Source: a virus (lineage: Duplodnaviria; Caudoviricetes). From it: a stretch of 64,000 nt of DNA. Positions 47,464-64,000 of this stretch are shown in pieces. Numbering within the stretch: position 1 is the stretch's first letter; every line of letters begins with the position of its first letter. The translations under genes were made by a program, and so were the position numbers. Under the pieces are notes generated by a model. It did no database searches. It worked only from the letters and a program-made list of their open reading frames with translations, and had not been told where the DNA came from. Where the stretch lies: IMG/VR virus record IMGVR_UViG_3300036546_000248. One strand, written 5' to 3'.

Positions 47464-49974
47464 ATGTCGCAGACCTACGTTTATCCATTCGACCCGACGG
47501 GCTCGTTGACTTCCAACGTGATCCCTAATGAACGGCATGTGCTGTCTGGGGTAACGGATCGTGAATTCAATTTCATCGTTCCCAAATTTGCACCGTTCTT
47601 TCGCAACAACTTGCGTATCCGTCATCTCGGCCTGGGTCGCGATTTGGTGGAAGGGGTGGATTACCACCTCACGCACTGGTTCCATGCAGCCTCCCACGGT
47701 GTGGGTCGTCCTGTTTATGGCTCTATCACTTTTATCGACCGTAGCCTGACGGGCGTAGTCGAACTCCGCTACCAGACCATCGGTGGGGACTGGGTGTATG
47801 ATGAGGGCACTGTCCTCGAACTGATGGCTAACCGCTTGATGAACCCACGCATCACTACGTGGGAACAAGTAGTGGACTTGCCTTTCCAGTTCCCGGTCAT
47901 CGACCACGAATGGGATCTGGATGACCTCACTGGCGCCAAAGAAGTCGTTGAAAAACTCGAAGGTATCACCGCTGCGATTAACGCGGCTAACGATGCCAAC
48001 GGTACTTCTCACGTGGGTGACACCAACAACCCACACCGCGTCACCAAGCTACAAGTCGGTCTGGGGTTGGTTGAAAACTATCCAATGGCCAACATTGCTG
48101 AAGCCACCGCCGGTTTGAGCAATGAGCTGTATATGACCCCGGTTCGGGTGCGTAACTTCGTTGAGAACTACGTCAACCCACTGTTTGAAACTCACACACT
48201 GCGTAACGATAACCCTCACGGGGTGACGAAGACGCAAGTGGGTCTGGGTAATGTGCAGAACTATGGCGTAGCCACTGCTGAACAAACCGTCGCAGGAACG
48301 TCCAACACCCTGTACGTAACGCCTGTCGCCGTGAAGGCAACACTTGATGCCAACGTGTTTCCTGTCATTACCGCCCACACCAACCGTAAGGATAATCCGC
48401 ACGGCGTAACTAAAGCACAGGTTGGTCTGAATCTGGTTGAAAACCTACCTCTAGCCAATCAAGCAGAAGCCATTGCCGGTAGTCGCAACGACCGCTATAT
48501 GACCCCATTGACGACTTACCAGATGGTCAGTCAGTACGTGGGAGAGGGGATGAACAACCACATCTCCAATCTGGACAACCCACACCGAGTGACTAAGGGT
48601 CAAGTAGGACTGGGTAACGTTCTGAACTACGGTGTTGCAACCGATACGGAAATGGTTGTTGGTACGGCGGATAACCTGTATACCACTCCGAAAGGCGTGC
48701 GGGCTGCTATTGAAGAAATCGCACTGTCCACGTATCGCGATCACACCAACGATGGTAACAACCCACACGGTACTACCAAAGCGCACGTGGGGTTGGGTAA
48801 TGTCGATAACTACCCCACCGCCACCCGCGCCGAAGCAGTGGCCGGTACTGCTACTAACCGATTCATGACTCCCGCAACCACTCAAGCGATGCTTGAGAAC
48901 ATTGTAGGAGATTCGGTAGGTAGTCACGTGAGTCGTCAAGACAACCCTCACCAGGTCACGAAAGCACAGGTTGGTTTGGGTAGCGTTGACAACTTCGCAA
49001 CAGCCAGTCAAGTCGAAGCAATGGAGGGCACTTCTGAGACGTTGTTCATGACGCCTTACACCACGCTATTGGTTTCTCAAGGTGCTGCACGTGCGTTGGT
49101 TAAAGAACACAGTGATCGTAAGGACAACCCACACGGCGTAACTGCCGCTCAATTGGGTGCGGTGACGACTGAAGACCTGGCAACCCGACTGTTGGGTTAT
49201 ATGACCAACGGTAGTAAAGCCGATGACTCGGCTAAGCTTAACGGGTACACCTACGAGCAAATCATGGCGTCGGTGTCTGGTGGTCAGGCCGATGACACCT
49301 TGCGTTTTGGTGGCTATAATGTCGAGGAACTGCGCGATCTCTATGCTCCGTACTACGCCCCTTTGGCTACCAAGCTGGAAGGGAAGTCGCTGAGTGAAGT
49401 GGCAGAGTATGCGGGTAGTTTTGCTTTGGCAGCCCCGGTCCTTCAAAAAGCCCCTTACAACTCTCCGGATGCGTCGGTTGGTGGTTGGACCAAATTGTTC
49501 GAGACCACTCAAACTCAGTTCAGCTTTTTGCTTTCAATTACAGGTGTGGAAAACGACAGACGGGTTGAAAGTTCGTTTGTGAGTTTCTACGACACCGAAA
49601 TGGATACGGATAATGATAAACTTCTGCAACGCTTCTTTGTTGCTGGACGCTATCATCCCCATGAGGTGTATGTTAAGCGACTGGGGGGTGTGTACTCGGT
49701 TTGGGTGAAACACAATTCGGTGAAGGTGGGCCATATCAGTTGCGTCATCTCCGGAGTAGACCGTGTTGACGATATAGTTGTCGTGACAGAGAGCTACGAT
49801 GAAGAGCCGGTCTGGGAAGACTTCGACCCAATGTACGAAGTCTTGTTGGACTCCTGTTCTGAGTCGGTGGACACTTTGATGACACTGTCCTCAGTGGAGC
49901 AATTGATCCAACTTCGTCTTGATGAACTTGCCGCAGAAATGCGAGCTGAAGCACAAGCATCCATCGCCGACTGA
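47464..49974 (+). CDS. tail fibre protein with seven 61-aa NPH repeats
   Basis: N-terminal YPFDPTG..N.I.NE.H domain; repeats NPHxVTKxQVGLGNV.NY...YxTP. Confidence 0.8.
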   Translation: MSQTYVYPFDPTGSLTSNVIPNERHVLSGVTDREFNFIVPKFAPFFRNNLRIRHLGLGRDLVEGVDYHLTHWFHAASHGVGRPVYGSITFIDRSLTGVVELRYQTIGGDWVYDEGTVLELMANRLMNPRITTWEQVVDLPFQFPVIDHEWDLDDLTGAKEVVEKLEGITAAINAANDANGTSHVGDTNNPHRVTKLQVGLGLVENYPMANIAEATAGLSNELYMTPVRVRNFVENYVNPLFETHTLRNDNPHGVTKTQVGLGNVQNYGVATAEQTVAGTSNTLYVTPVAVKATLDANVFPVITAHTNRKDNPHGVTKAQVGLNLVENLPLANQAEAIAGSRNDRYMTPLTTYQMVSQYVGEGMNNHISNLDNPHRVTKGQVGLGNVLNYGVATDTEMVVGTADNLYTTPKGVRAAIEEIALSTYRDHTNDGNNPHGTTKAHVGLGNVDNYPTATRAEAVAGTATNRFMTPATTQAMLENIVGDSVGSHVSRQDNPHQVTKAQVGLGSVDNFATASQVEAMEGTSETLFMTPYTTLLVSQGAARALVKEHSDRKDNPHGVTAAQLGAVTTEDLATRLLGYMTNGSKADDSAKLNGYTYEQIMASVSGGQADDTLRFGGYNVEELRDLYAPYYAPLATKLEGKSLSEVAEYAGSFALAAPVLQKAPYNSPDASVGGWTKLFETTQTQFSFLLSITGVENDRRVESSFVSFYDTEMDTDNDKLLQRFFVAGRYHPHEVYVKRLGGVYSVWVKHNSVKVGHISCVISGVDRVDDIVVVTESYDEEPVWEDFDPMYEVLLDSCSESVDTLMTLSSVEQLIQLRLDELAAEMRAEAQASIAD

Positions 49975-49985
49975 ATAACCACCTA

Positions 49986-50012
49986 GGTTGTGGTAGATAG
50001 CCTACCACAACC
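49986..50012 (+). terminator. intergenic hairpin
   Basis: GGTTGTGGTAG-ATAGC-CTACCACAACC between the two fibre genes; weak U-tract. Confidence 0.5.
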
Positions 50013-50030
50013 CTTTCGGAGTAACTCGTT

Positions 50031-51854
50031 ATGTCATCAACATTGACACGGGGTCTTATTCTTAAGTACCCCATTGACCCAACAGCCGTCAACCCCAACA
50101 ACAAAATTGTAGGGGAGGTACACGACTTGGGTGTCGGTATCAACCGAGCCATCGTCCCTAACTACAGCGCCTTCTACAGTGAGTCGTTAGTGGTGCGGGT
50201 CGAGGACCGTGTTGATCCACTGGTGCCTAATGAGCACTACATTGCAGCACAGCTTCACGCTGACGCCACCGCCAGTTTGAACCGTGAGGTTTGTATGGCG
50301 GTTGTGATCAAGGATCAGAACGTCATGGGTAAAATCACCCTCGAATACCAAACGGTAGGGGGTGATTTCAGTGTTTCGGTTGACGCGCTACGCCGAGCAA
50401 TCGAAGACGAAGATCTGGATGAACGTACTGTCAGTTGGGGTGACATCATTGCCCGACCCAGTGCTTATCCACCTGCACCACACCTTCACGACATCGGTGA
50501 CCTTTATGGTTTCGAATACGTCGTAGAGGCTCTGGAAGCTTTGCGGGCAGCCATTCTGATTGGTGACGAAGCCACTCACGAAGAGATTCGTCAGTGGGTG
50601 CGATATGAAGACAGTCTGTTACGAGACAGCATTGCTGAAACCAATGCCAATCTCAACACCCACGTTCGCGACCAATCCAATCCACACGCGGTAACTAAAG
50701 CACAGGTGGGTTTGGGTAATGTCTTGAACTACGGGGTGGCTCAAACTGCCGACATGGTTGCAGCGACCAGCAATGCGCTGTACACCACACCAATCCGTGT
50801 TCGTGATGCTATCAACGAACACGCCATCAAACCGTTGAACGCTCACATTGCCCGTACGGATAACCCGCACGCGGTAACTAAAGCACAGGTTGGTTTGGGA
50901 TTGGTGGCCAACTACAACGTAGCATCTCAGGCCGACATGATCGCCGGTACGTCGCCTTCGTTGTACACGACACCGATTCTGGTCAAACAAGCCATCGATG
51001 AACATGCACTCAAACCACTTAATGCTCACACTGCTCGGGTGGATAACCCACATGGTGTAACCAAAGCACAAGTCGGATTGGGTAATGTCTTGAACTATGG
51101 CGTGGCTAGCGAAGCGCAGGCCCGTGCGGGCACCAGTGATTCGCTGTACATGACGGCATTGAAGACCGCACAAGCCATCAACGAACAAGCGTTGGTACCG
51201 CTCAATGCTCACACTGCTCGGGTGGATAACCCGCATGGTGTAACCAAAGCCCAGGTAGGGCTTGATAGCGTGGATAATTTCGCAACAGCAACTGAGGCAG
51301 AGGCTCGTACCGGGACGGTTAACAACCGCTTCATGACACCGTTGCGTACCGCACAAGCGATTGCTACCCAAGCACTGACGCCACTTAATGCCCACATTGC
51401 GCGAGCAGACAACCCTCACGGGGTGACTAAAGCACAGGTAGGCTTGGGTAATGTGCAGAACTACAGTGTGGCCACTCAAGCGTTGGCAGAAGGTGCGACC
51501 GATAACGGTACATATATGACACCGTTGCGTACAGGTCAGGCTATCAACAATTTGGCAGTCGTGCCTTTGAACGCACACATCAACCGCAGCGATAACCCGC
51601 ACAGTGTAACCAAAGTACAAGTGGGTCTTGGAAGCATTCCAAACTCAATTACCAACTCACGCGGTACGGACAGTAACGCTTCGTTGTTGACCGCAAAAGG
51701 GATGTTTGATCACGTGAACTCGGGTGATCACGATGGACGGTACGCTCCGAAGAACACCGCAGGCGTTGACTGTAGCGTTCATTGGAACGGATCGGGTGTG
51801 TATATCTGGGGTGGTGGTACTTGGCGACAGGTTTGGCCGGCTCAGTGGCAATGA
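50031..51854 (+). CDS. tail fibre protein with six NPH repeats
   Basis: N-terminal YPIDPT..N.I..E.H domain shared with 47464..49974; 61-aa repeats; short C-terminus GVYIWGGGTWRQVW. Confidence 0.8.
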   Translation: MSSTLTRGLILKYPIDPTAVNPNNKIVGEVHDLGVGINRAIVPNYSAFYSESLVVRVEDRVDPLVPNEHYIAAQLHADATASLNREVCMAVVIKDQNVMGKITLEYQTVGGDFSVSVDALRRAIEDEDLDERTVSWGDIIARPSAYPPAPHLHDIGDLYGFEYVVEALEALRAAILIGDEATHEEIRQWVRYEDSLLRDSIAETNANLNTHVRDQSNPHAVTKAQVGLGNVLNYGVAQTADMVAATSNALYTTPIRVRDAINEHAIKPLNAHIARTDNPHAVTKAQVGLGLVANYNVASQADMIAGTSPSLYTTPILVKQAIDEHALKPLNAHTARVDNPHGVTKAQVGLGNVLNYGVASEAQARAGTSDSLYMTALKTAQAINEQALVPLNAHTARVDNPHGVTKAQVGLDSVDNFATATEAEARTGTVNNRFMTPLRTAQAIATQALTPLNAHIARADNPHGVTKAQVGLGNVQNYSVATQALAEGATDNGTYMTPLRTGQAINNLAVVPLNAHINRSDNPHSVTKVQVGLGSIPNSITNSRGTDSNASLLTAKGMFDHVNSGDHDGRYAPKNTAGVDCSVHWNGSGVYIWGGGTWRQVWPAQWQ

Positions 51855-51872
51855 TCATGAAGTAAGTATGGG

Positions 51873-51903
51873 CGGTCGGGGCAACCCGACCGTTTATGCT
51901 GAC
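51873..51903 (+). terminator. GC hairpin followed by TTTATGCTGAC
   Basis: CGGTCGGG-GCAA-CCCGACCG at the left border of the radical SAM cluster. Confidence 0.7.
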
Positions 51904-51950
51904 AGAATTTGACAATTCTATAGTCAGCAGAACTTTGAGGACATCCCCTA

Positions 51951-52445
51951 ATGTTTAATCAAATTCCCGATCTGGTACAAGAGTACATCGACCTGTGTCT
52001 GGCCTCCGACTATGCTAAGACCGAAGAAGTGGTCCGCATGGTACCTATGCCCAACCGGGACGAGCGTGTGACGTCTGAGCGTTGCCACCTTTTGACTCAC
52101 CCTCAAACCACCATGAAGATCGAGCGCTTCGAAGACTTCTGTCCTGAAGCTCGTGCTCTATGTGATTATTTTGCTGCCTTGTACAATCACAAAGGCCCTG
52201 TGACAGCACACATCTTTAACAGCCCCAAAGACGGCTTCACTTTTGTAGAACACCTCGATCCCGACGATGTGGTGATCTATACAGTCTTTGGCACCAAGAC
52301 AATGGTAATTGATGGCAAACCCGTTCGGATTGCTGCCGGTGAACACGTCTACATGAAAGCCAACACACCTCACTACGCCACCAATGAAGAAGCTTCGGTG
52401 ATGATCAGCATTGGTCTTGAGAAATGGGTAAGGGACAAACTATGA
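51951..52445 (+). CDS. JmjC/cupin-like Fe(II)/2OG oxygenase
   Basis: F..HLD.DDV.I..V.G.K...H facial-triad pattern; GAGG RBS; stop overlaps the next ATG. Confidence 0.65.
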   Translation: MFNQIPDLVQEYIDLCLASDYAKTEEVVRMVPMPNRDERVTSERCHLLTHPQTTMKIERFEDFCPEARALCDYFAALYNHKGPVTAHIFNSPKDGFTFVEHLDPDDVVIYTVFGTKTMVIDGKPVRIAAGEHVYMKANTPHYATNEEASVMISIGLEKWVRDKL

Positions 52446-53488
52446 GCTACAAGACGCTCTACATCAAAACCACCGGCTCATGTAACCTTGATTGCAAACA
52501 CTGTTTCACCGGCGGTAAGGGTGGTGACAAAACCCATTTCAATCCCGAGAAAACAGCACAATGGGTCAAAGACTACATTGAAGCTACCCCAGATGCGGTA
52601 AACTATCACCTCGAATTGCACGGTGGGGAACCCTTCTTGGTACCGGTAGCCAAACTCAAGCAGTTTGTCGACCACTTCAAAGACAACCCCAAAATCACCA
52701 TCGGGGCCAACACCAACCTGACGTACAAGTTGACAGATGAGATCTTAGACTTCATCCAGACTTACTTGGGTAGTTCGATTGGAACCAGTTGGGACCCGTG
52801 GATTCGTTGGGCCAATGACAAACAGTACCAACTGTGGCTCAACAACATGAAACGCCTGCGGTCACTGAACGTCAGTCTCTACACGATCGTATCGGTCTCT
52901 AAGAGAATGACGGAACAGACGCCAGATTGGTTACTCGATCAATTGGCAACGACCGGGGCGACCACAGTGTCACTTGAACGTTTAACGCTCTCAGGCAACG
53001 CCGAGCGCAATCCGGACGTTTTCCCAGACAACGAAGCCCAAGACTATTGGTATTTGGAATTGGTAAAGCGGTATCGGGAACGCAAAGCGGACCTACCGTA
53101 CAACATCCGTACGTTGGATACCCTGATTGAGAAAGTCAATCTTGGGATTGTCAAGACCGATACCAACTGTCGCAACTGTGAGCAGAACTTGGTAACGATC
53201 AACTCCAACGGCACTTTGGGTGGCTGTCCTAACGTGGCCAGTGAACACAAACATGCGACCCTTGATGACTCCGTCCAAACCTTCTTGGTTTCCGATGGAC
53301 GTGTCAATGAGATCGTCAAAGAACTCAACTTCAACGACCCGTGTTACTACTGCGACGTGTTCGACATCTGCGGTGGTGACTGTCATCGTCTGCCTTGGCA
53401 GGGTGACCGGTGCGGTGGGCTTAAGCACACATTACGCTACCTGTCGGGTCGAGTTACAGACTCCAACATCATTTTGAAGGTACGTTAA
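52442..53488 (+). CDS. radical SAM/SPASM protein 1
   Basis: CNLDCKHC, HGGEPF, C-terminal CRNC..GCP..CYYC..ICGGDC; start at ATGA overlap with the cupin stop. Confidence 0.92.
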   Translation: MSYKTLYIKTTGSCNLDCKHCFTGGKGGDKTHFNPEKTAQWVKDYIEATPDAVNYHLELHGGEPFLVPVAKLKQFVDHFKDNPKITIGANTNLTYKLTDEILDFIQTYLGSSIGTSWDPWIRWANDKQYQLWLNNMKRLRSLNVSLYTIVSVSKRMTEQTPDWLLDQLATTGATTVSLERLTLSGNAERNPDVFPDNEAQDYWYLELVKRYRERKADLPYNIRTLDTLIEKVNLGIVKTDTNCRNCEQNLVTINSNGTLGGCPNVASEHKHATLDDSVQTFLVSDGRVNEIVKELNFNDPCYYCDVFDICGGDCHRLPWQGDRCGGLKHTLRYLSGRVTDSNIILKVR

Positions 53489-53489
53489 T

Positions 53490-54029
53490 ATGGCACGTAA
53501 TTTGGAAGCGGCTTGGACGGTGAACCGAGTCAACGCGCTGATTCGAGATCCGATCAACGCCAGAATTGCTTACGGCACCAACAACCCCCCACACGCCAAT
53601 ACGCCCAGTAGCTGGTTTGGGGGTACGACGGAAGGTTTGGGGGCGTTGGCGGTAGACAGTAACGTTCAAGGTACTGCCGGCGCTGCAAAGTTAAACAATA
53701 TGATCCGCAACTACACTCGGTTGTTTAATCGCATCTGTCGTAAGCGCATGATCATCTACTACAATAACAACGGTTCTTTGCAAGTATGGAGTGATGTGAC
53801 CGGTATCGGTAACTTCGCTACAGGGGTGGCCGCATCAGCAATCGCTTCCCCTGCGACAGAATTTAGCGCAGGGTCTAACATCCAAGAGGCGGCTCTTAAC
53901 AGTCATCTCAACTCGATGTATACTTCATGGTGGAACAACGCCGGCAACACCACTGTGGAAACCTTGACTTACACCGTTTGTCACACCTCGTGCCATTCGA
54001 ACTGTAACTGTAACCGTGGTCGGAGATAA
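53490..54029 (+). CDS. Asn/Ala/Gly-rich protein with C-terminal CHTSCHSNCNCNRGRR; candidate radical SAM substrate
   Basis: 179-aa ORF starting 1 nt after the rSAM1 stop; all four closely spaced Cys are in the last 16 residues. Confidence 0.7.
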   Translation: MARNLEAAWTVNRVNALIRDPINARIAYGTNNPPHANTPSSWFGGTTEGLGALAVDSNVQGTAGAAKLNNMIRNYTRLFNRICRKRMIIYYNNNGSLQVWSDVTGIGNFATGVAASAIASPATEFSAGSNIQEAALNSHLNSMYTSWWNNAGNTTVETLTYTVCHTSCHSNCNCNRGRR

Positions 54030-54033
54030 TTAG

Positions 54034-54741
54034 ATGACTACCCCTGTCGTTGTAATTGAAACAACAGCCCCGATACCCGTCGAACTACTCCGTCGTAAGT
54101 ACACCGAAAACATCCGCTTTGTGATCGACTACTCCACCAGTCGTTTCAAAGGTCGGACGCTGATTAACTTCCTCAATAACGTGGGGATTGAATGTCAGCT
54201 CAAACTCGACAACAACCAAGAATCCTTGGACTTGGTCTCGGCGTACCTCAACCATCCAGCCGTGGTAGATATCCCAGATCTTAACGACGTGGTGATGAAC
54301 CTCATGTTGGCTTTGGTTGGTGAGGAAAACTACTTGGCCTTCGAACCCGAAATGTTCCAAAAGTTCGTCGCTGATAATGAAGCCATTCTTAAAACGTGGT
54401 TTCGTCGTGTGGGCTCGATTGGACTATTTCCGTTCTATGTAAACAAAACCGTAGAGCGCAGCTTCATCGAACAGTTCCCTGTGGACGAGGATGCCTCGTT
54501 GCCTGGCTTGAGCTTTGTGCAATTGATGCGTCATCCGCTCTGGCCACTGTTGGTCAGTCACATTCCACAATCGGCATGGTGCGTTAACCCGACGTTCTTT
54601 AACGAGTACATCTTTGCTGGTATGAACTTGATGTACTACTTCTCCAATCCTGACAACCCGCTTTGTATGGCCGCCATCACCCGTGATGAAGACCTGAATG
54701 AGACGCTCTTAACAGCGCTCAATGAAGCCGGGGAGGAATAG
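54034..54741 (+). CDS. hypothetical protein in the radical SAM cluster
   Basis: tightly packed 235-aa ORF; no recognised motif. Confidence 0.8.
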   Translation: MTTPVVVIETTAPIPVELLRRKYTENIRFVIDYSTSRFKGRTLINFLNNVGIECQLKLDNNQESLDLVSAYLNHPAVVDIPDLNDVVMNLMLALVGEENYLAFEPEMFQKFVADNEAILKTWFRRVGSIGLFPFYVNKTVERSFIEQFPVDEDASLPGLSFVQLMRHPLWPLLVSHIPQSAWCVNPTFFNEYIFAGMNLMYYFSNPDNPLCMAAITRDEDLNETLLTALNEAGEE

Positions 54742-54744
54742 ACC

Positions 54745-55809
54745 ATGCTACACGTATTTGGCGACCTATACGTCGAAACTGAGTTCCGCGCCTACCCGAC
54801 CGACAACCAGATCAATATCTCGATGAACACGGGGTTTGAGAAGGTTGCGCACCCGTTCGTTGAAAACGAAGGCAAGCAGTTTGGTTGGGCATTGAGCTTG
54901 GATGAATTCAGTAGTGAGAGTTTCTACGAACTTCTACGTGCCGCCGTTGACTCTGAACGTAAGGTAATGATTTACGTTGATTCAGAAACCTATGTTCGCT
55001 TCTACGCAGCTCTTCTCAAAGCGTTGCTACCCGGCATCACCGAGGAAATGTTCAAACAGTTCTTCATCTGCATTAAGGCAACTTACGACCACTCCACCGT
55101 CAGCTTCTATGACAGTGTGATGGACCATTCGTTGGCCCTCAAGATCAATCGGGAATTGGTTGAACGTTATTGGACGTTTGAAGATCCTGAGATCGTCACT
55201 GCACTGCGCCGTCTTATCAACAGCGATCCCGACAAGATCTCTCTTGAGTGGCGAGTGATGAAGTTGTTCGGAACCGGTTACGTAGGTAAGGTGGCCAAGA
55301 CCATCCAAAACATCATGCGCCGTACGGCAATCAGTAACAGTCACGACGCCATGGAAGATTGGGGGCGGGTGATCGTCGATCCTACGCGTTGGTCGGTCTC
55401 CGGGTGTACGGCAGACGGCTTGCTTGAAGCCGACTCCACATTCCAGGCCTGTGTCAATTTTGGCAATTTGTCTGACCCCGACTTGCGTATCCCAGGGGCG
55501 ATGAAAAAGAAAGCCAGTCGAGCCTATTTGGTGGAGCTACTCACCAACATCGAGAAAGTGTTGGTGGATACTGGTGATCTTGCTTCTGCCAACCGCAGTG
55601 CCAATCTGCGCAAAGCGTTGGAGGACGAGTCTGATATGTCAGACCCAGAGAATCTCAAGCGACGCATTCGCATGTTGTTCGATGGTGGTCCCGCCACTTT
55701 CCGCCTCGCCAACCTGGATGCTGCCAAGTACAACGAGAACTTGATCCGCACCGTCATTCGTCTGCCTGAAGACCTCATCAAGGACTTGTTGAAAGGAGCC
55801 GCCTGGTGA
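54745..55809 (+). CDS. hypothetical protein in the radical SAM cluster
   Basis: 354-aa ORF with GGAGG RBS; stop overlaps the rSAM2 start. Confidence 0.8.
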   Translation: MLHVFGDLYVETEFRAYPTDNQINISMNTGFEKVAHPFVENEGKQFGWALSLDEFSSESFYELLRAAVDSERKVMIYVDSETYVRFYAALLKALLPGITEEMFKQFFICIKATYDHSTVSFYDSVMDHSLALKINRELVERYWTFEDPEIVTALRRLINSDPDKISLEWRVMKLFGTGYVGKVAKTIQNIMRRTAISNSHDAMEDWGRVIVDPTRWSVSGCTADGLLEADSTFQACVNFGNLSDPDLRIPGAMKKKASRAYLVELLTNIEKVLVDTGDLASANRSANLRKALEDESDMSDPENLKRRIRMLFDGGPATFRLANLDAAKYNENLIRTVIRLPEDLIKDLLKGAAW

Positions 55810-56804
55810 ATAACCTCATCCCTATCGTCGACGTACTAGCAGACAAAAAAGGAGAACAGAAGGAAGCTCATTTGATCCTGTTTGAGTACTGTAATCTTCG
55901 GTGTAGTTTCTGTCACCAAGACCACGACTCGAAGGTGGGGATGTCGGCCGACGCCATGTGGGAGAAGGTGTATGCATTGTTTGCAAACACCAACCCCAGT
56001 GACCCGTACGTGGTGAACATCACCGGTGGGGAGTTGTTCTTGGATGAATATCCGGACGACTACTTCGACGTTTACTACGGGATCGCACGTCGGATCTTCG
56101 AACACTACGATGACGTGGTGGTGGTTTTTGGGGCGAACTTGGTGTACGAGAACATTGAACGGGTGGTGCGGTTGCTTGAGCAGCTTAAACCACACGGTAA
56201 AGTACAGCTTGCCACCTCGTATGACCCAGCCGGCCGTTTTGACCGAGAGTCGTTCATGCTTTTCATGCACAACTTAACGCAAGTTAAGGAGTACGTAGAG
56301 ACCGTGAACGTCGTGATCACTCGACAGAACATCGAAACCATTTTGGCTGGGAGAGAAACCGCTACGCTTGACTGGTTGTGTGATAACTTCCAAGTGTTCT
56401 TCGACCACTATATCCCCAGCGCACAGTTCGAACGTATCCAGCCTTCTGAAGATCAGATTGGTAAACTTTACCTGTACCTGAACGAACATCACCCTAATTC
56501 CTATCCACTGATCAGTTGGAAAGAGAATTACCGTAACGTGACCACGTGTCGCTCTACGAAGATCGTAAACAAGGACGGGGTAGTTACAACCTGTTGGTCT
56601 GAAGCGGGTAAAGATGCAGTCTTGGATGAGCAGGCCGGATTGCTGGCGAAGAATGCGGCTGAGGAGCGTTTTCTTGAGCACTACGAGTGTTTCTCGTGTG
56701 AGTACTATCAACGGTGCGGGTTACGGTGTTTCTTGCATCACAGCTTCGTTGAGGGTACTACGAGCGAGTGTCAGATAAAAGAAATGTTCCGCAAGATCCT
56801 GTAA
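55806..56804 (+). CDS. radical SAM protein 2 with C-terminal Cys cluster
   Basis: CNLRCSFC, TGGELF, C-terminal CFSC...RCGLRC; GTG start in a GTGA overlap. Confidence 0.9.
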   Translation: MNNLIPIVDVLADKKGEQKEAHLILFEYCNLRCSFCHQDHDSKVGMSADAMWEKVYALFANTNPSDPYVVNITGGELFLDEYPDDYFDVYYGIARRIFEHYDDVVVVFGANLVYENIERVVRLLEQLKPHGKVQLATSYDPAGRFDRESFMLFMHNLTQVKEYVETVNVVITRQNIETILAGRETATLDWLCDNFQVFFDHYIPSAQFERIQPSEDQIGKLYLYLNEHHPNSYPLISWKENYRNVTTCRSTKIVNKDGVVTTCWSEAGKDAVLDEQAGLLAKNAAEERFLEHYECFSCEYYQRCGLRCFLHHSFVEGTTSECQIKEMFRKIL

Positions 56805-56806
56805 GT

Positions 56807-56858
56807 GACGGCATAACGGACCGGGGGAAACCCTGGTCCGAAATGTCTGTTATGTCCG
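56807..56858 (+). terminator. GC hairpin with GACGGCATA / TATGTCCG arms inside the cluster
   Basis: CGGACCGGGG-GAAA-CCCTGGTCCG. Confidence 0.7.
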
Positions 56859-56909
56859 ATCATTATTTACCAGCAGTCGAGATGGTATAATAAAACTTAG
56901 GAGTCTGTC

Positions 56910-58004
56910 ATGGATCTCATAATCAAAGGCACTTCAAAATGTAACTACCGTTGTACTTTCTGTAGCTCCACAGTGCTGTCCGATGACCATAACGATGTGT
57001 TGGATATTGCATACATCGATCGCTTCGTACAGCGCTTTGCAGACACGTTAAACACGGTGATTGTCAACGGTGGTGACCCGTTAATGCTTCCCGTACAGTA
57101 CTACTGGGACATTCTGGACATTCTGGCCAAATACAACTGTGAAGCCAAACTCTCGTTCACCAGTAACCTCTGGGCGTTCTATAAAAAGCCTGATCTGTGG
57201 ACCGACTTGTTTCGCCACCCACAAGTAGGTGTGATCACCTCATTCCAGTATGGTGACAAGCGCCTTAAGGGCGACCGCACACCGTTTACCGAAGCTGAGT
57301 TCTGGGCTATCTCAGATCTGTTTTTGGACCGCGTTGGTTATCGACCTGAGTTCATTGCCGTCATTGACCAAGACAATGAACACACCGTCTTGCAAACGGT
57401 TGAGTTGGCCAAAGCTATGGGGGTGGAATGTAAGATCAACCACGTCCTAGCCTCAGGACCTGAAGTCAACAAGCAGGGTGTGGTGATGGGGAGTGCAAAG
57501 AACTTCTTCACCCAAGCCGACATCTACGAACATTACATTCAGATCATCGAGGCAGGCTTAGGGGAGTGGGAGTACAACTGCAAGCAACTGACAAAGAAGT
57601 TGCGTGGCGGTCACACCACCTGCCCTTTAAGTCGTAGTTGTGATGCCGGTATACGCACACTCCAACCAGACGGCTCCTACTACAGCTGTGGCGCGTTTGG
57701 TGACGACCGCACCCATCGTATAGACTTCGATCAGGAAATGGCTTCAGCGGCCTTACAGACGCCTTTACAGGACGATCCTGACCTCGATACAATGAAGCTT
57801 GCGTGTTATGCTTGTCCGATGTTCGAAATCTGCAATGGGTGCCGCAAAACCATTGCCGACACTAAGAGGTTTGGGTTACAAGAACACCAGTGTCGCAAGA
57901 TGAAATCCCTAGCCCCCAAGATCATCGAACTCAACGGTTTGGTTGGTGTGTTAGAGCCGACCCCGTATGAAGACGAAAGTCTTGAGCTAATCTTTAAAGG
58001 ATGA
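56910..58004 (+). CDS. radical SAM/SPASM protein 3
   Basis: CNYRCTFC, NGGDPL, CPLSRSC..YSC..CYAC..EICNGC. Confidence 0.92.
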   Translation: MDLIIKGTSKCNYRCTFCSSTVLSDDHNDVLDIAYIDRFVQRFADTLNTVIVNGGDPLMLPVQYYWDILDILAKYNCEAKLSFTSNLWAFYKKPDLWTDLFRHPQVGVITSFQYGDKRLKGDRTPFTEAEFWAISDLFLDRVGYRPEFIAVIDQDNEHTVLQTVELAKAMGVECKINHVLASGPEVNKQGVVMGSAKNFFTQADIYEHYIQIIEAGLGEWEYNCKQLTKKLRGGHTTCPLSRSCDAGIRTLQPDGSYYSCGAFGDDRTHRIDFDQEMASAALQTPLQDDPDLDTMKLACYACPMFEICNGCRKTIADTKRFGLQEHQCRKMKSLAPKIIELNGLVGVLEPTPYEDESLELIFKG

Positions 58005-58007
58005 CCT

Positions 58008-58955
58008 ATGAATTCTCAAAATCCTGAACTGACGATTTCCCTGAATCCATGGTATTATTGTAACCTTGCGTGCGACTTCTGTTATCTGACACCTGAGCAG
58101 TTAAACGACAAACAAAAAATCGACCCCGACGTTTTGGCTCGGCGGTTAGATGAAGTGCTCGAAGCCGGCTATGACATCACCCACGTCGACTTGTATGGGG
58201 GTGAACCGAGCCTGTTACCCAAAGCGTATATGGATGAGTTGAAGCTCACCCTGTTCTCCCGTGGCGTGACGGACATTGTAGTCCACACCAACCTGACGGC
58301 TATTAACGACATCGTACTTGATGAAGACTATGAGTTGTCTGTCTCGTATGACTTCACCTCACGCGAGAAGCACGACCTGGTGTTCAACAACATGTTGTCA
58401 CTGGAGCGTCGGTACAACGTGTTGACCTTGGCCTCGCGTACATTACTGGATACCTTAAGTGCCGATGAGTTTGTCCGCACCTTTAACCTGTTAACTAACG
58501 CACGGTTCATCGAGATCAAACCGTACTCGACCAACCAAGCCAATCAACAAAACGTTCAGTTCGATGAATTCGAACAATTGGTTTATGGGGTAATCAACCA
58601 CCCTGATCGTTTGTTTGAGTTTGAAAACCAGCGCCTTATCGAAACAGCGTTGTCAGGTGAGCGTAACGCGTTTAGTGACGATCACTTGTATATCACCCCA
58701 AGGGGTGAGTTTGCAGTGCTGGACTTTGACCTGAATGACAATGAGTATTTCAGGCCAATGGCATCGCTTGACGAATACCACCGTTGGTGCGAAAACGAAA
58801 AGCGTAAAGTCAACACCAACAGCATCTGCAATAGCTGCCAGTTCAAAGGCCATTGTCTGTCTGAGCACCTACGAGACGTGAAGTCTTTGGAGCGCTCCTG
58901 CAATGGATTTCACAACCTACTCGTAAGGTATCAACGCGATGTTTGTTCAACATAG
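58008..58955 (+). CDS. radical SAM protein 4 with C-terminal Cys cluster
   Basis: CNLACDFC, YGGEPS, CNSCQFKGHC..SC. Confidence 0.9.
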   Translation: MNSQNPELTISLNPWYYCNLACDFCYLTPEQLNDKQKIDPDVLARRLDEVLEAGYDITHVDLYGGEPSLLPKAYMDELKLTLFSRGVTDIVVHTNLTAINDIVLDEDYELSVSYDFTSREKHDLVFNNMLSLERRYNVLTLASRTLLDTLSADEFVRTFNLLTNARFIEIKPYSTNQANQQNVQFDEFEQLVYGVINHPDRLFEFENQRLIETALSGERNAFSDDHLYITPRGEFAVLDFDLNDNEYFRPMASLDEYHRWCENEKRKVNTNSICNSCQFKGHCLSEHLRDVKSLERSCNGFHNLLVRYQRDVCST

Positions 58956-59964
58956 ACAACGTCTTGAAATCACTCTGGACATGTTTCGTGGCTGTGCTCA
59001 CAGCTGTAGTGGATGTATGGTTGATCGTACACTTGGTGGTGCGGTCGACGACTTAGTGCCGTTACAAGCACTGTTGCAGGAAATGGTTGCAGCTGGCTTT
59101 GTGGCCTTCGACGTAGGGATTGGTCCTACTGACTTTATGTCAGCTGATAACGTTGATGAGCTGATGTATCACCCGGTGTTTCAAGAGATCGCTCAGATGT
59201 TTGAGCAGGTCACTTTTCAAACCGCACTGTTGGATAAGAACTTCGACAACTACACTGAGATGTGTCGGATAGTCGATGAAACCTGTCCGGGCAAAGCGAT
59301 TCGTTTTTTGATTCCAGGTGCACCGGATTTTTTCAAGACGCGAAAGTTCGGCGACATGGTGGTGAAGAAACTCAACCATGTCAAGAGCACTCTGAAGTCT
59401 GCGTACTTGAACGAAGCAGGTTTTGTGATCAATTGTACTCGAGATACTGTGGGTGAGCAATTTGATACATCTTTACATCGTATGTTCGATGTTGAGTTTC
59501 CTGTCGACAAAGACGACATCCTGAACATCCCGTACGGACGTAGTAAAAGTATCGACATCATGCTTGGGCAGAACGTGAAAACAATCAGTCACCGCATCAG
59601 TCAGTACTACACAACCTTGGATGTAGACAACGAGCGTTTCCGTAATCCTGATCGTCATGAAGACACAGGAACCATGCAGAACCTACTCTACACCGACGGA
59701 AAGTTGTATTGGGTACCGTTCTTAAAGGATGACTTCGCTTTTTTGAATGATGCTTTCGTGATCCCAAGACCATGGACCATGGATGCGGTTCTCACAGCGC
59801 GTACGGCGGCTATACAGAAGAGCTTGGACTTCCTACAAGGTACTGAATGTCTGAGTTGTCCGTTGTTGCCCAGTTGTTCTGAGAAAGGCATCACCACCAT
59901 CATGCGTATGTTGTCAGTACGTGACTGTATTGTGGGAGATGAGCATGTTCGTAGCCCAGAGTGA
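58939..59964 (+). CDS. divergent radical SAM-like protein 5
   Basis: CAHSCSGC near the N-terminus, GPTD in place of GGE, C-terminal CLSCPLLPSC..C. Confidence 0.7.
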   Translation: MFVQHRQRLEITLDMFRGCAHSCSGCMVDRTLGGAVDDLVPLQALLQEMVAAGFVAFDVGIGPTDFMSADNVDELMYHPVFQEIAQMFEQVTFQTALLDKNFDNYTEMCRIVDETCPGKAIRFLIPGAPDFFKTRKFGDMVVKKLNHVKSTLKSAYLNEAGFVINCTRDTVGEQFDTSLHRMFDVEFPVDKDDILNIPYGRSKSIDIMLGQNVKTISHRISQYYTTLDVDNERFRNPDRHEDTGTMQNLLYTDGKLYWVPFLKDDFAFLNDAFVIPRPWTMDAVLTARTAAIQKSLDFLQGTECLSCPLLPSCSEKGITTIMRMLSVRDCIVGDEHVRSPE

Positions 59965-60985
59965 TGAGGCCTTTAACATCCAGCTGGAGATTTTAAAGGA
60001 CTGCGGTTATTCGTGTCAGGACTGTGCCATCGACAAAAGCAAAACCAGTGATTACATGCGAGTCGGGGATGATGACTTGTTAATCCGAGCGGCCGACGAG
60101 TTTAAGGACCACGGCTTTCGGTTACATGAATTTACCCTAGGTCCAACTGACATCATCTCCTCAAAGTCCGGTTTGGGGATCTTTGATCGCTACGTCGTGA
60201 AGGAATTGACGCAGCGTTATGATTCACTCACTGTGTCCTTGGCGTTGTTGTTTGATCGTCAGTTAGTGGAGTTGGCACGCACAGTTGATCGTGTGATGCG
60301 GGGCAAGAAGTTTCGACTGATTGTCCCACTCACCATTCGTAATGCCCACAACGAGAAGTTCTTGAACCTGATTCGTCAGCGGATTAAAGTCATCAAGGAC
60401 AACTTGTTTGAGACTGATTTTTATATGGTCTATATCGGCATTAATATGGTCAACGCTTCGGCTGAAGCATTTAACTTCGACAACAACAAACTGGTTCACG
60501 ATCTGGATGTTGGGGTTCACCAGACGGTGGAGTACAACTTCCCTCATTCCCGAATGGGGTTAGAACAACACCGTGCGGCGTTCTTAAACGACCTTCAAGC
60601 GTTTATTAACGGTCTACACGAAACAGTAGACCGTGACGCTAACTACAACCGGTTTCTGGTTCCTAATATCAAAGACAGCATTGAGACCATCTACTACCAA
60701 GGTGATCTTTATTATGTCCCAAGCTTAATCGAAAAGTTCCCGTTGTTCGAACCTACGTTTAAGTTAGCCAGACCCTACTCGATGTCAAGCGTCTTACAAT
60801 TTAAGTACGACCTCTACACCGAGAACCTGTTGGAGTATAGCGACAAGCAACCCTGTTCCGATTGTTGTTTTGTTGATGAGTGTGCCCGTGGTGACATACA
60901 TGTCATCATGCGTAAACTTAACCACAATCAATGTTTACTTGACATGAAAAACAGGTGGGATCAACCTACCCCAAGGATTCGTTAG
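59945..60985 (+). CDS. divergent radical SAM-like protein 6
   Basis: CGYSCQDC, GPTD, C-terminal CSDCCFVDEC..C; paralog of protein 5; start placed at MFVAQ. Confidence 0.7.
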   Translation: MFVAQSDEAFNIQLEILKDCGYSCQDCAIDKSKTSDYMRVGDDDLLIRAADEFKDHGFRLHEFTLGPTDIISSKSGLGIFDRYVVKELTQRYDSLTVSLALLFDRQLVELARTVDRVMRGKKFRLIVPLTIRNAHNEKFLNLIRQRIKVIKDNLFETDFYMVYIGINMVNASAEAFNFDNNKLVHDLDVGVHQTVEYNFPHSRMGLEQHRAAFLNDLQAFINGLHETVDRDANYNRFLVPNIKDSIETIYYQGDLYYVPSLIEKFPLFEPTFKLARPYSMSSVLQFKYDLYTENLLEYSDKQPCSDCCFVDECARGDIHVIMRKLNHNQCLLDMKNRWDQPTPRIR

Positions 60986-61435
60986 ATGTCCACTCAACCC
61001 CCTTATAAAGAATATCAGTACCTGTATCGGGAGCTGGTAGAAGAACACGACGATGCGATCGACAAAGTTCCATCCGTTGTGACAGAAAACACCCTCGAGG
61101 AAAAACTACGAGGGGCTATGGCGTACTTTGAAGCACAAAGCTTTCCCATTATCTATCCTGGCAAAAGCTATGGGGTGGCTGTGGTGTACGCCTATCACAT
61201 CTTGCGTGATTACAACATTCCAGTACTTGAGACGTTAAACGAGTCGGACTTGTTCTTAGGTGAGGACCCCTACTTTGTGGTCTATCAGGACGATCCTGAA
61301 ACTTATGACCGGTTACTGGAAAAACTCCAACCCCTAGGTGACATTACCGAGTTAGGCTGGGCGAAGCAAACCAGCGAGTACTATCGTTTGGAATGTACCG
61401 CCGAGGGCTTGGCTGAAGTCATGGCGCGAGGTTAA
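60986..61435 (+). CDS. hypothetical protein in the radical SAM cluster
   Basis: 149-aa acidic, Tyr-rich ORF abutting rSAM6. Confidence 0.8.
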   Translation: MSTQPPYKEYQYLYRELVEEHDDAIDKVPSVVTENTLEEKLRGAMAYFEAQSFPIIYPGKSYGVAVVYAYHILRDYNIPVLETLNESDLFLGEDPYFVVYQDDPETYDRLLEKLQPLGDITELGWAKQTSEYYRLECTAEGLAEVMARG

Positions 61436-61436
61436 G

Positions 61437-61997
61437 GTGAATACATATATCAATCCTTGGAACATCGTTGTTGGCCGTATCAATGTAGCTGACCAGTTTG
61501 ACATGAAAGAATTCTACGATGAAGTCTTTCTGCTTCAAGCTATGGCCGGACAAGAAGACCCCTCTCAAGAACGTTTGGACCCTGAGCTACTACCGACCCT
61601 GATGAACATGCGCGATAACGTCGTCACACCGGCTGTAGTACAGTACGCTCAAGATGTTTGGGAGTACACGATCCCGAAGATCGAAGTTGAGACCAATGCC
61701 AAGTGGATTCCAGAAGGTGAGGGTTTGTTTCCTCATTACCACGCTGGTAGTTGTCTGTCCGCTATCTGCTATCCTCAAGACTCTGAGTCGGGGATTAACT
61801 TCTTTGATCCTCGTGGACATGCCTGTCGAGGGTATCCAAAAGAGATTCGTGATCGGTTCTTTGCGGCATGGAAAGTCTCACCCAGAGCTGGCGACATCTA
61901 CATCTTTCCAAGTTACATACAGCACAGTGTTTCTTATGTAAAAGAAGACGTACGGCTGTCTTTGCTTCACGAATACTACCTGCGTGAAAACGTATAA
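61437..61997 (+). CDS. Fe(II)/2OG oxygenase (TIGR02466/PF13759-like) A
   Basis: PHYH..S.LS.I.YP, F.DPRG, P.AGDIYIFPSYIQHSV, RLSL. Confidence 0.8.
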   Translation: MNTYINPWNIVVGRINVADQFDMKEFYDEVFLLQAMAGQEDPSQERLDPELLPTLMNMRDNVVTPAVVQYAQDVWEYTIPKIEVETNAKWIPEGEGLFPHYHAGSCLSAICYPQDSESGINFFDPRGHACRGYPKEIRDRFFAAWKVSPRAGDIYIFPSYIQHSVSYVKEDVRLSLLHEYYLRENV

Positions 61998-62017
61998 CTC
62001 ATAAGGAAAAATTCAAC

Positions 62018-62572
62018 ATGCAAATGCAACTCCTCACTCCTTGGGCTATTCAGATCGGTCGCGTCAATTTGAAAGAACTCATCGATGCTGACGCCATCGC
62101 CACTGAGATCCACACCCTACACCTGGTTTCGCCACGAGAGTCCACCATTCCGTATGAAGTCAACGAGCAAGAGTTTCCAGTGATCTGTGCGGCCCGCGAC
62201 ACGGTAATCGAAAAAGCCGTACGCGAATTCATTGTTAAGGTTTTTGCCCACTCTCCAAAGAACCTCAAAATCGATACCTTCGGTAAAGCATTCGAGAAAT
62301 ACGAAGGGCTAGATGCCCATCTTCACGGTAACAGTAACGTGACCACGGTGTACTATCCGTACGCCAGTGATAGTGGCATTCGCTTTTTCGATCCTCGGGG
62401 CAATGCCTCTCGCGGCTATCCACGAAGCATTCGCGATAGCCATTTCGGGGAGTTGTACATTCAACCCGAAGCCGGCGATCTGTTGATCGTACCGAGTTAC
62501 GTACAGCACAGTGTGGCCCACGCTACTGAAGATGTACGTCTCTCGTTGGTCAATGATTTCTTCTTCGATTGA
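62018..62572 (+). CDS. Fe(II)/2OG oxygenase (TIGR02466/PF13759-like) B
   Basis: AHLH..S.VT.VYYP, F.DPRG, P.AGDLLIVPSYVQHSV, RLSL; tandem paralog of A. Confidence 0.8.
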   Translation: MQMQLLTPWAIQIGRVNLKELIDADAIATEIHTLHLVSPRESTIPYEVNEQEFPVICAARDTVIEKAVREFIVKVFAHSPKNLKIDTFGKAFEKYEGLDAHLHGNSNVTTVYYPYASDSGIRFFDPRGNASRGYPRSIRDSHFGELYIQPEAGDLLIVPSYVQHSVAHATEDVRLSLVNDFFFD

Positions 62573-62582
62573 CTATTATCCC

Positions 62583-62617
62583 AGGGAGGCTTCGGCCTCC
62601 CTAGGCTTTTATGCCCG
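62583..62617 (+). terminator. GC hairpin followed by TTTTATGCCCG
   Basis: AGGGAGGC-TTCG-GCCTCCCT at the right border of the cluster. Confidence 0.75.
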
Positions 62618-62648
62618 GTATCTTATGAGACTGTGAGGAGGTCCCTTT

Positions 62649-63149
62649 ATGAAACTTAAGTTTAATGGGGTGTGGAAACAAAGTTTACTGAGGATTAAAC
62701 ACCTCGGTGCTTGGCGCTCACCTTACAGAACCATGATAAAGCGCAATGGTGTGTGGAAAGACGATCACCTAAGAGGGATGTTGAACAGTCTGTATAACGG
62801 CACGGTTAACGTAGGTTCCTCAGTTGGTTGGGACTACACCGCGTATGGATGGTTGGTTAATGGCTTTGGTACAACCAACAGCAACACCACCAAGTTCGTA
62901 AACAAGGTAGGAGCAATTATCACGGGAACCAAGCCCTACTATAACTCACCACCTTTTCAATGGTTGGAGATGGCTGTAGAGGGAGATTTGATGGGGGTGG
63001 CTAATCAGATTGGCGATATCACAGTAAATGGTATCGCTGGTCGGTTGGTGAGTATCAGTAACGGTAATAGTGCAGGTGCCAGTACCTTTATTGGTTGGGT
63101 GTTTGATCAACCCCTTCCTACTTCTGGACAATGGATCATCAATACTTAA
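62649..63149 (+). CDS. putative tail-associated protein with Trp-repeat N-terminus
   Basis: MKLKFNGVWKQ..KHLGAWRS..KRNGVWKD resembles the N-termini of 44688 and 45345; Gly/Asn-rich beta C-domain. Confidence 0.6.
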   Translation: MKLKFNGVWKQSLLRIKHLGAWRSPYRTMIKRNGVWKDDHLRGMLNSLYNGTVNVGSSVGWDYTAYGWLVNGFGTTNSNTTKFVNKVGAIITGTKPYYNSPPFQWLEMAVEGDLMGVANQIGDITVNGIAGRLVSISNGNSAGASTFIGWVFDQPLPTSGQWIINT

Positions 63150-63164
63150 CGTGGAGAAACAAGA

Positions 63165-63875: not shown

Positions 63876-63922
63876 AAAAAAAAAATAAGCTAAGACCTAC
63901 ACGGGGCCAAAGCCCCGTGTAG
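63876..63922 (-). terminator. intrinsic terminator (minus strand, possibly bidirectional)
   Basis: CTACACGGGGC-CAAA-GCCCCGTGTAG preceded on + by a poly-A run. Confidence 0.75.
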
Positions 63923-63927
63923 TGTTC

Positions 63928-64000
63928 TTATGTTGCTTCATTGGCCGATTGCTTTGTTAGGTAATCTATAGCCTCTTCTGGAGACATTCCTTTCAACAGT
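63928..64000 (-). CDS. 3' end of a gene truncated by the window edge
   Basis: open frame LLKGMSPEEAIDYLTKQSANEAT* ending just before the terminator. Confidence 0.55.
   Translation of the reverse strand, partial: LLKGMSPEEAIDYLTKQSANEAT

Follow-up and report, generated by a model that had tools for sequence, protein, structure and literature searches.

The stretch of DNA analysed here (the window) is 64,000 nucleotides (nt) of a Caudoviricetes virus, IMG/VR record IMGVR_UViG_3300036546_000248, and at positions 51951-62572 it carries a block of 13 open reading frames (ORFs), o1 to o13, six of which encode proteins with the motifs of radical S-adenosylmethionine (SAM) enzymes. On the whole, the reading that we lean towards, with somewhat more confidence than doubt, is that this block is a copy of a widespread, self-contained maturation cassette, that its substrate is its own product o3, and that the mature o3 is probably a fibre-associated or other host-contact protein. 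All 13 ORFs lie on the + strand and either overlap their neighbours or stand 1-20 nt from them, the sole sizeable intergenic gap being 105 nt at 56805-56909. A preliminary description of the window had reported such an array of co-directional and tightly coupled ORFs, one of them with a Cys/His-rich tail, and both are found in the sequence, the tail being that of o3.

The proposed substrate o3 is a protein of 179 amino acids (aa) encoded at 53490..54029 on the + strand, in which a folded alpha/beta domain is followed by a flexible tail of Cys-His repeats at the C-terminus, coded at 53979-54026, which ends in RGRR. In the aligned homologues the tail of the family consists of a hydrophobic residue, three C-H-x-(S/N) units and then R-G-R-R. 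Across an alignment of 25 sequences, C164, H165, C168, H169, C172 and G177 in the tail are invariant, compared with one invariant residue and about 30-40% identity in the body of about 160 aa, a degree of conservation in the motif that matches that of an active site. The window's own copy shows C-N-C-N (54003-54014) in place of the third C-H-x-S unit, gaining an extra Cys, and the third tail His, present in at least 90% of the aligned homologues, is missing from it. An exhaustive HMMER search places 702 clusters (at 50% identity) in the o3 family at E <=1e-3, and 305 at <=1e-10. Among 150 listed representatives most have three CH units, with 94 ending in RGRR and 22 in RSRR. In some phages the CH units are expanded to at least 13 with N-V-P-V-like spacers (L014, L031 and P0123), which by analogy resembles multi-core ribosomal precursors. 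Three features argue for o3 as the substrate: its strict linkage to rSAM1, the first radical SAM gene of the cassette; a tail that is more conserved than the body; and the restriction of the motif to o3, since none of the other ORFs of the 64-kb window contains it.

The AlphaFold2 (AF2) model of o3 has an alpha/beta domain with a predicted local distance difference test score (pLDDT) of 85 and a predicted template modelling score of 0.80, and the tail protrudes outside it with low confidence. This fold matches no solved structure (Foldseek against PDB; VIA wide, best Z 4.2), and in the AFDB clusters and BFVD it matches only uncharacterised proteins, namely close relatives and three larger myovirus proteins. 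The latter (A0A8S5USJ7, A0A8S5USV2 and A0A8S5USJ8 in BFVD, from Myoviridae sp. ctijX18) are 504-660 aa long and share the o3 fold at a Foldseek E of ~1e-4, so the o3 domain, by these models, would occur inside larger phage proteins too. Pfam and NCBIfam detect no domain in o3, peptidoglycan-binding or other, and no signal peptide is seen by eye in o3 or in its bacterial homologues.

A hint on the nature of the family, and not on that of the window's protein itself, comes from two members that extend past the CH repeats, P0159 (= L034 11068-12015) and P0197. In both, the repeats are followed by a short linker of Gly, Asp and Pro, a Ser-Asp-x-Arg-Leu-Lys site and a Peptidase_S74 'chaperone of endosialidase' domain (PF13884; cut-off 22 bits, scores 44.8 and 39). 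Peptidase_S74 domains, typical of trimeric fibres and spikes, are intramolecular chaperones that drive trimer folding in these proteins and afterwards cleave themselves off. Another subgroup of o3 proteins ends in G-D-G-P-G-x-G-G-G, about where S74 cleavage would leave the chain. Together with the neighbourhood of fibre genes, these fusions and subgroup ends suggest that o3 proteins may be small trimeric fibre-type components that carry the CH repeat at the C-terminal tip.

Radical SAM enzymes, oxygenases and possible accessory proteins

The translations of six genes, all on the + strand, show an N-terminal CxxxCxxC motif together with a C-terminal Cys cluster: o2 (rSAM1, 354 aa, 52424..53488), o6 (rSAM2, 332 aa, 55806..56804), o7 (rSAM3, 364 aa, 56910..58004), o8 (rSAM4, 315 aa, 58008..58955), o9 (rSAM5, 341 aa, 58939..59964) and o10 (rSAM6, 354 aa, 59921..60985). 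Among them, o2, o6 and o7 are of the SPASM type and o7 is the best conserved enzyme, o8 has a shorter auxiliary Cys cluster, and o9 and o10 are a divergent pair of 'GPTD' type, with G-P-T-D in place of the usual GGE motif. The full Cx2Cx5Cx3C motif is present in o6 and, among eight C-terminal Cys, in o2; o7 has Cx2Cx5Cx2C, and o8 to o10 have the shorter Cx2Cx5C with a distal Cys. The SPASM hidden Markov model (HMM) TIGR04085 stays below its cut-off of 27 bits, with scores of 24.7 and 17.5. With the gathering score of Pfam Radical_SAM (PF04055) at 29.5 bits, o7 (36.9) and o8 (39.4) pass, o2 (29.4) is 0.1 short and o6 (21.5) is below; o2 also passes Fer4_12. All four match the phage family phrog_1802 at 5e-36 to 3e-58 (2e-37 for o6). 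The two Cys motifs, CxxxCxxC and the C-terminal Cx2Cx5C, are retained across 26-31 orthologues per enzyme in all six families, and from this retention all six families look functional.

The pair o9 and o10 needs a separate account. The invariant Cys of o9 are C19, C23 and C26 with C304, C307, C313 and C330, and in 19 aligned sequences of the pair the CxxxCxxC motif and the four C-terminal Cys do not vary. Between the profiles of o9/o10 and rSAM1 an alignment is obtained for the cluster loop only (E 0.012), the nearest ESM Atlas clusters of o9 are all radical SAM/SPASM proteins (score 0.94), and o10 matches phrog_31457. The six radical SAM proteins of the preliminary description therefore hold at the level of Cys motifs, with membership of the superfamily secure for four (o2, o6, o7 and o8) and probable for the two divergent ones. 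The ESM Atlas record of o9 begins at residue 27, the gene caller having dropped the CxxxCxxC motif, and automatic annotation may under-count radical SAM genes of this type.

As to the relatives of these enzymes, the top NCBIfam match of both rSAM1 and rSAM3 is the anaerobic sulfatase-maturating enzyme (anSME, TIGR03942), followed in the ranking for rSAM1 by YhhB and AmcB, which form cyclophanes, by PapB, which matures ranthipeptides, and by DarE. The rSAM1 profile searched against the PDB likewise finds anSME (2.5e-9), with ChlB, 8VPO and CteB also matched. These relatives are maturases of proteins and ribosomal peptides rather than enzymes of nucleotides or cofactors, which supports, at the family level only, the protein-modification pathway proposed in the preliminary description. 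The comparison with maturases of ribosomally made peptides with post-translational modifications (RiPPs) that had been suggested there comes out divided, since the best matches are indeed maturases and none reaches a family cut-off. PADLOC gives only generic viperin-core matches to the radical SAM N-termini. A predicted complex of rSAM1 and o3 with three 4Fe-4S clusters and SAM scores 0.02, which carries no weight either way.

The cassette in addition encodes three putative oxygenases. The first ORF, o1 (164 aa, 51951..52445, +), is a cupin or JmjC-like Fe(II) oxygenase that passes Cupin_2 (PF07883; 3.6e-8, 33.5 bits against a cut-off of 27.2) and falls just below JmjC_2 (PF08007; 20.4 bits against 22), so that of its former label, JmjC/cupin-like, the cupin part is borne out; its facial triad H101, D103 and H141 (HxD...H) is kept in 31 orthologues. 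The last two ORFs, o12 (61437..61997, +) and o13 (62018..62572, +), are PF13759 Fe(II)/2-oxoglutarate (2OG)-type oxygenases that score 44 and 41 bits, well over the cut-off of 27, and the PF13759 oxygenases retain three His and one Arg (H100, H102, H163 and R173 in o12). They had been called TIGR02466-like, a family for which they score 25.9 and 24.6 bits against a cut-off of 62.5, and PF13759 is the assignment that stands.

The remaining three proteins had been listed as of no recognisable function, and in the Pfam, phrog and NCBIfam scans they match nothing beyond phrogs without an assigned one. The core protein o4 (235 aa, 54034..54741, +; phrog_20767) is kept in phage and bacterial versions of the cassette, and its AF2 model (pLDDT 91) has no informative match in the PDB, in VIA wide (best Z 4.6) or in AFDB. 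For o5 (354 aa, 54745..55809, +) no family is matched, and one bacterial gene family, present in four loci, has a single member with a BLAST match to it; hhalign gave nothing for o5 as a degenerate radical SAM enzyme. The core protein o11 (149 aa, 60986..61435, +; phrog_20737, 3e-29) is also found in the bacterial loci. ESM Atlas look-ups of o4 and o11 (scores 0.81-0.83) are uninformative.

Distribution in phages and Bdellovibrionota

Overall, 15 phage records are found with rSAM1, and a separate tblastn with rSAM3 recovers the identical 15. They fall into three groups: Pseudomonas phage pPa_SNUABM_DT01; the Ralstonia/Burkholderia phages RSL2, RSF1, FLC and S13; and the unrelated 470-490-kb Agrobacterium/Sinorhizobium phages Atu_ph07 and Phosso. 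Besides these, 30 jumbo-phage contigs of IMG/VR, many of them 220-277 kb, share one string of genes: two fibre genes, the cupin, rSAM1, o3, o4, o5, rSAM2 to rSAM6, o11 and at least one oxygenase. Gene order is the same in the annotated records of the pPa_SNUABM_DT01, RSL2-like and Atu_ph07-like phages, and the survey of co-occurrence across jumbo phages that the preliminary description had proposed gives this order in the 30 contigs. The gene for o3 follows rSAM1 in 29 of the 29 IMG/VR loci that reach past rSAM1, and also in pPa_SNUABM_DT01, RSL2 and Atu_ph07. The cassette comes directly after the fibre genes in the phiKZ-related group, and directly after the gene of a ~4450-aa virion protein, gp180, in Atu_ph07. 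To call the block 'inserted', as was done before, is misleading, because about 30 related phage contigs have it at the same location.

Some contigs carry a smaller set. In the two contigs with the S74 variant, L034 and L035, BLAST recovers only rSAM1, o3, o4 and rSAM3, with one oxygenase in L035, and this set of four may be close to minimal. A third setting with virion-type genes before the cassette, unrelated to the phiKZ-related group and Atu_ph07, is a marine phage-like contig (L047 614-10030, binned as Rhodobacteraceae), which encodes a fibre-like ORF, an ORF of 2859 aa, two short tandem o3-type genes with CH tails (137 and 140 aa) and a radical SAM gene; its bin has two further pairs of CH-tail and radical SAM genes on other contigs. 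The RSL2-type phages have a dihydrofolate reductase gene within the cassette, between two radical SAM genes (L002 20039-20575, ORF073), which is absent from the window and its IMG/VR relatives. The radical SAM genes of RP12/RP31 (PMC5468394) belong to a different cluster, with other sizes and an MgoB-like gene, and are not recovered by tblastn with rSAM1 or rSAM3; the radical SAM gene of a cyanophage paper (PMC12801897) is unrelated.

A scan of one genome per prokaryotic species yields seven loci, six of them in metagenome-assembled genomes (MAGs) of Bdellovibrionota, assigned to Bdellovibrio, Pseudobdellovibrionaceae, Bacteriovoracia and Bacteriovoracaceae; two loci lie on contigs of 2.4 and 2.8 Mb. 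The bacterial loci include rSAM1 (at times in two copies), an o3 with the same tail, o4, rSAM2, rSAM3, rSAM4, an rSAM5/6-like gene, o11 and the family with the o5-like member, and their rSAM3 is 49-52% identical to that of the phages. Neither the cupin nor the oxygenases are seen in the bacterial loci examined. One locus, L046, is flanked by housekeeping genes (SMC, LolA, signal peptidase II (LspA) and a DinG-type helicase), and no neighbours outside the cassette are conserved between the bacterial loci. A profile search of sampled Bdellovibrionota genomes detects the o3 family in 12 of 401. The core of the cassette is hence chromosomal in Bdellovibrionota, and the system is not dedicated to phages as had been supposed.

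This bacterial version also bears on the substrate. Since this version stands by itself and comes with no phage tail, its substrate has to be encoded inside the cassette, and it is mainly for this reason that we prefer o3 to a separate tail protein. The earlier suggestion of a virion or tail protein as the target is accordingly modified: the likeliest substrate is o3, and an indirect link to the virion or fibre is kept through the fibre neighbourhood and the S74 fusions.

Proposed maturation of o3, known systems and rival explanations

In the route that we infer, which comprises o3 as the substrate, the type of chemistry, trimerisation and a role in the virion or in host contact, rSAM1-4 (SPASM-type) and rSAM5-6 (twitch-like) would use 5'-deoxyadenosyl radicals to abstract hydrogen from residues of the o3 tail. 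The resulting covalent changes would most plausibly be thioether or carbon-carbon crosslinks, or oxidation of Cys or Ser. The phage versions could add O2-dependent tailoring such as hydroxylation of His or Arg by their cupin and two PF13759 oxygenases, and o4, o5 and o11 would be accessory proteins, possibly presenting the substrate. The mature o3, probably trimeric, would then act late in infection, either in association with the fibre or as another component that contacts the host, and in the predatory Bdellovibrionota it may serve prey contact.

The system closest in outline is the HXS antiphage system (HxsA-D; TIGR03976-03979; Li et al., Nat Commun 2026, PMC13128918), where two radical SAM enzymes and a small partner mature HxsA, a protein with His-x-Ser repeats that undergoes a +8 Da change; the product binds DNA in the periplasm and blocks the entry of phage DNA. 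The two have in common several radical SAM enzymes (one of the SPASM type in HXS), a whole-protein substrate, short basic-rich repeats and small accessory proteins. They differ in that the present cassette has six enzymes instead of two, that C-H-x-S repeats followed by RGRR form the very C-terminus of o3, that o3 shows neither a signal peptide by eye nor a peptidoglycan-binding domain, that no HxsD homologue is found, and that the cassette is encoded by phages and predators in a structural-gene context and not in a defence island. The scores are also low, with 30.4 bits for o2 against HxsB (cut-off 370), and 25.7 for o7 and 19.0 for o6 against HxsC (267.9). Another likeness is offered by CrpA/CrpC of Methanococcus voltae, in which the SPASM enzyme CrpC puts ranthionine crosslinks on the Cys-rich CrpA (PMC13692751), that is, it acts on cysteines of a full-size protein encoded next to it. 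Here a single archaeal enzyme works on another substrate family, and the sequence likeness considered is the generic one of SPASM enzymes. The cassette would work like HXS and CrpA/CrpC in outline, but it fails the family cut-offs of known systems.

The other comparisons are with single families. The closest by sequence to rSAM1 and rSAM3 is anSME. It acts on a Cys or Ser within a protein motif that has Ser-Arg at its end and is loosely like the last C-H-x-S-R unit of o3. The o3 motif, however, lacks the Pro/Ala of the sulfatase signature, no sulfatase gene is present, and the matches amount to 57.8 bits (o2) and 39.7 bits (o7) against a cut-off of 349 (structures PDB 4K36-4K39). The ranthipeptide and sactipeptide maturases (PapB, CteB/SCIFF; NF047865, TIGR03974; PDB 5WGG) are likewise of the SPASM type, crosslink Cys at a regular C-x3 spacing in ribosomal peptides and are weakly matched (48.4 bits for o2 against PapB, cut-off 340; 18.6 for o8 against the SCIFF maturase, cut-off 425), whereas the proposed substrate here is a folded protein of 180 aa and not a short peptide with a leader, and many paralogous enzymes stand in place of one. 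The likeness to the CXXX-repeat maturase TIGR04115 is confined to the C-x3 pattern of o3, with 16.9 bits for o6 against a cut-off of 350. Compared by description, pelagimyophages and cyanomyophages are large phages that also have radical SAM cassettes among tail-fibre genes, in their host recognition cluster (Zaragoza-Solas et al. 2020, PMC7029224), noted there without explanation, but that cluster is hypervariable and rich in glycosyltransferases, whereas the present cassette is syntenic, sugar-free and built around o3. The literature holds no published account or functional assignment of the cassette that we could find, in accordance with the earlier statement that no characterised system has this composition; in the papers on FLC6, RP12/RP31 and S13 such genes appear only as annotation entries. 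The cassette is conserved yet unstudied.

Several points weigh against the maturation of o3 as favoured here. The reading goes beyond what the analysis demonstrates, namely which genes are present, their synteny, the conserved motifs, the enzyme class at the level of families and the distribution. All NCBIfam matches of the enzymes are far under the family cut-offs, so no known reaction can be transferred to them; o9 and o10 give no match in the Pfam scan and are probable members of the superfamily by motifs and a language-model lead alone; and six enzymes are unusually many for about 12 residues. The window's o3 is without a Peptidase_S74 domain and its fold matches no fibre protein in the searches, and the label of virion structural protein, given to ORF057 and ORF065 in the RSL2 record, is not given there to ORF068, the homologue of o3. 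The Cys/His repeat could also do no more than bind metal, with no covalent modification required.

Among the rival explanations, the strongest, which we nevertheless judge unlikely, is an HXS-like role in conflict, where the matured o3 would be no part of the virion but an effector against competitors or host defences, through superinfection exclusion or through nucleic acid binding by its basic His/Arg tail. The C-H-x-S spacing and basic end of o3 do recall HxsA, whose HxS repeats depend on HxsB and HxsC and are DNA-binding, weak matches to the HxsB and HxsC models exist, and the cassette is as patchy in Bdellovibrionota (the 12 genomes mentioned above) as defence islands are. Yet in all related phages it occupies a fixed position in the late structural region and not a variable accessory island, the S74 fusions indicate assembly of the fibre type, and o3 has neither a Pfam domain nor a visible signal peptide; HxsD is missing, and what PADLOC finds is only the generic radical SAM core. 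A pathway to a small molecule, glycan or cofactor, with o3 as its carrier, its scaffold or an unrelated neighbour, seems to us quite improbable. It could make enzymes of o4, o5 and o11, whose folds or families remain without a match, some SPASM/twitch enzymes do use small molecules (MoaA and NirJ, both weakly matched), and the pelagimyophage clusters place fibre-adjacent radical SAM cassettes beside glycosyltransferases (PMC7029224). But it leaves the conservation of the o3 tail and the expansion of its repeats unexplained, the best matches are protein and peptide maturases, and neither the block nor its bacterial versions contain a transferase, a ligase, or a sugar- or nucleotide-activating gene.

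Two further rivals have still less in their favour. The Cys/His repeats might ligate a metal or iron-sulfur centre that some of the radical SAM enzymes build or insert, in the manner of NifB or HydG/HydE. Cys and His, the invariant residues, are classic metal ligands, multi-enzyme radical SAM sets are typical of cofactor assembly, and iron is bound by His repeats at the tips of phage fibres, T4 gp37 among them. However, no similarity to NifB, HydG or HydE stands out, genes for metal transport or scaffolds are lacking, and a repeat number that varies from 2 to more than 13 fits a peptide motif better than a defined cluster; we thus hold such an assembly to be decidedly unlikely as the function of the cassette, while it could coexist with crosslinking. 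Lastly, that the radical SAM enzymes together with the Fe(II)/2OG oxygenases modify phage DNA or RNA has very little probability in our view. Radical SAM enzymes reportedly take part in the hypermodification of phage thymidine, the 2OG oxygenases include nucleic acid enzymes, and the RSL2-type cassette contains the dihydrofolate reductase gene. Against this, bacteria that have no phage DNA carry the core cassette in their chromosomes, the SPASM-type similarity is to protein maturases, the linkage to o3 is strict, and the block contains no kinase, transferase or hydroxymethylase gene; the absence of nucleotide-pathway genes had been pointed out before and is found again.

Returning to maturation of o3, a bolder form of this reading, which we find doubtful, is that a mobile 'predation cassette' is common to jumbo phages and the predatory Bdellovibrionota, in which up to six radical SAM enzymes would turn the invariant (Cys-His-x-Ser)3-RGRR end of o3 into a previously unseen, multiply crosslinked and probably metal-binding tip on a trimeric host-contact structure. 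If true, RiPP-like chemistry at the protein level would gain a new class, one that takes part in attacks on Gram-negative cells. Most work on radical SAM maturation has dealt with short peptides, and whole-protein substrates are just emerging (HxsA and CrpA, both 2026). The cassette would be a large and evolutionarily successful whole-protein example, with its 702 substrate clusters and up to six dedicated enzymes. Its carriers are jumbo phages under development as biocontrol agents against Ralstonia, Burkholderia and Agrobacterium and in Pseudomonas therapy, in which the cassette lies beside host-recognition genes. Possible gains are new enzyme chemistry on Cys and His, and a feature of the contact of large phages, and perhaps of bacterial predators, with Gram-negative cells. 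The cultivable carriers pPa_SNUABM_DT01, RSL2/RSF1, FLC6, S13 and Atu_ph07 make the system testable.

Hairpins and neighbouring genes

Three hairpins on the + strand bound and divide the block, and all three are read from the sequence where the preliminary description had put them. The first (51873..51898), with a GCAA loop and a T-rich tail, lies between the fibre gene and the cassette; the second (56817..56838) is located in the only sizeable gap and splits the cassette into two units; and the third (62583..62612), GC-rich with a TTCG loop and a T run, closes the block in the manner of a terminator. The region as a whole has no excess of terminator-like sites, with 12 found compared with 11 expected from shuffled sequence. 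The gap between rSAM2 and rSAM3 is an insertion hot spot, occupied here by the 105 nt with the hairpin and in related contigs by up to 2.2 kb (L022 14437-16697 and L013 14372-15943). The inserts contain ORFs, the longest on the opposite strand, and these ORFs match no Pfam family.

Upstream of the cassette, two genes at 47464..51854 (+) encode tail-fibre-like virion proteins of 836 and 607 aa, as judged by phrog_2163, several tail-fibre phrogs and synteny. They are always 5' of the cassette in this phage group, and the RSL2 homologue of the upstream fibre-like protein is annotated as a virion structural protein in its record. A weak thiovarsolin match of the upstream fibre protein (E 0.0011) is below the cut-off and dismissed. 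Shortly downstream, a lysozyme/baseplate-hub-like protein is encoded. It is the product, 236 aa in length, of the second gene after the cassette (63165-63875), with matches to the baseplate-hub/lysozyme phrogs phrog_4928 (5e-70) and phrog_196 (1e-37), and its homologue in pPa_SNUABM_DT01 is annotated as a transglycosylase. The location between tail-fibre and lysis genes given earlier is right on the fibre side, and the protein on the other side may be a tail-associated lysin rather than an endolysin.

A near-identity DNA search among phage records finds no match to the window. Contigs from wastewater metatranscriptomes of three studies match pieces of 47000-64000, parts of the cassette included, at 99-100% identity, which is at most a weak hint of transcription of the cassette since DNA carry-over is possible. 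In metagenomic DNA runs of shale gas, subsurface, soil, wastewater and sludge, 79-100% of the sampled words of 52424-56804 are present.

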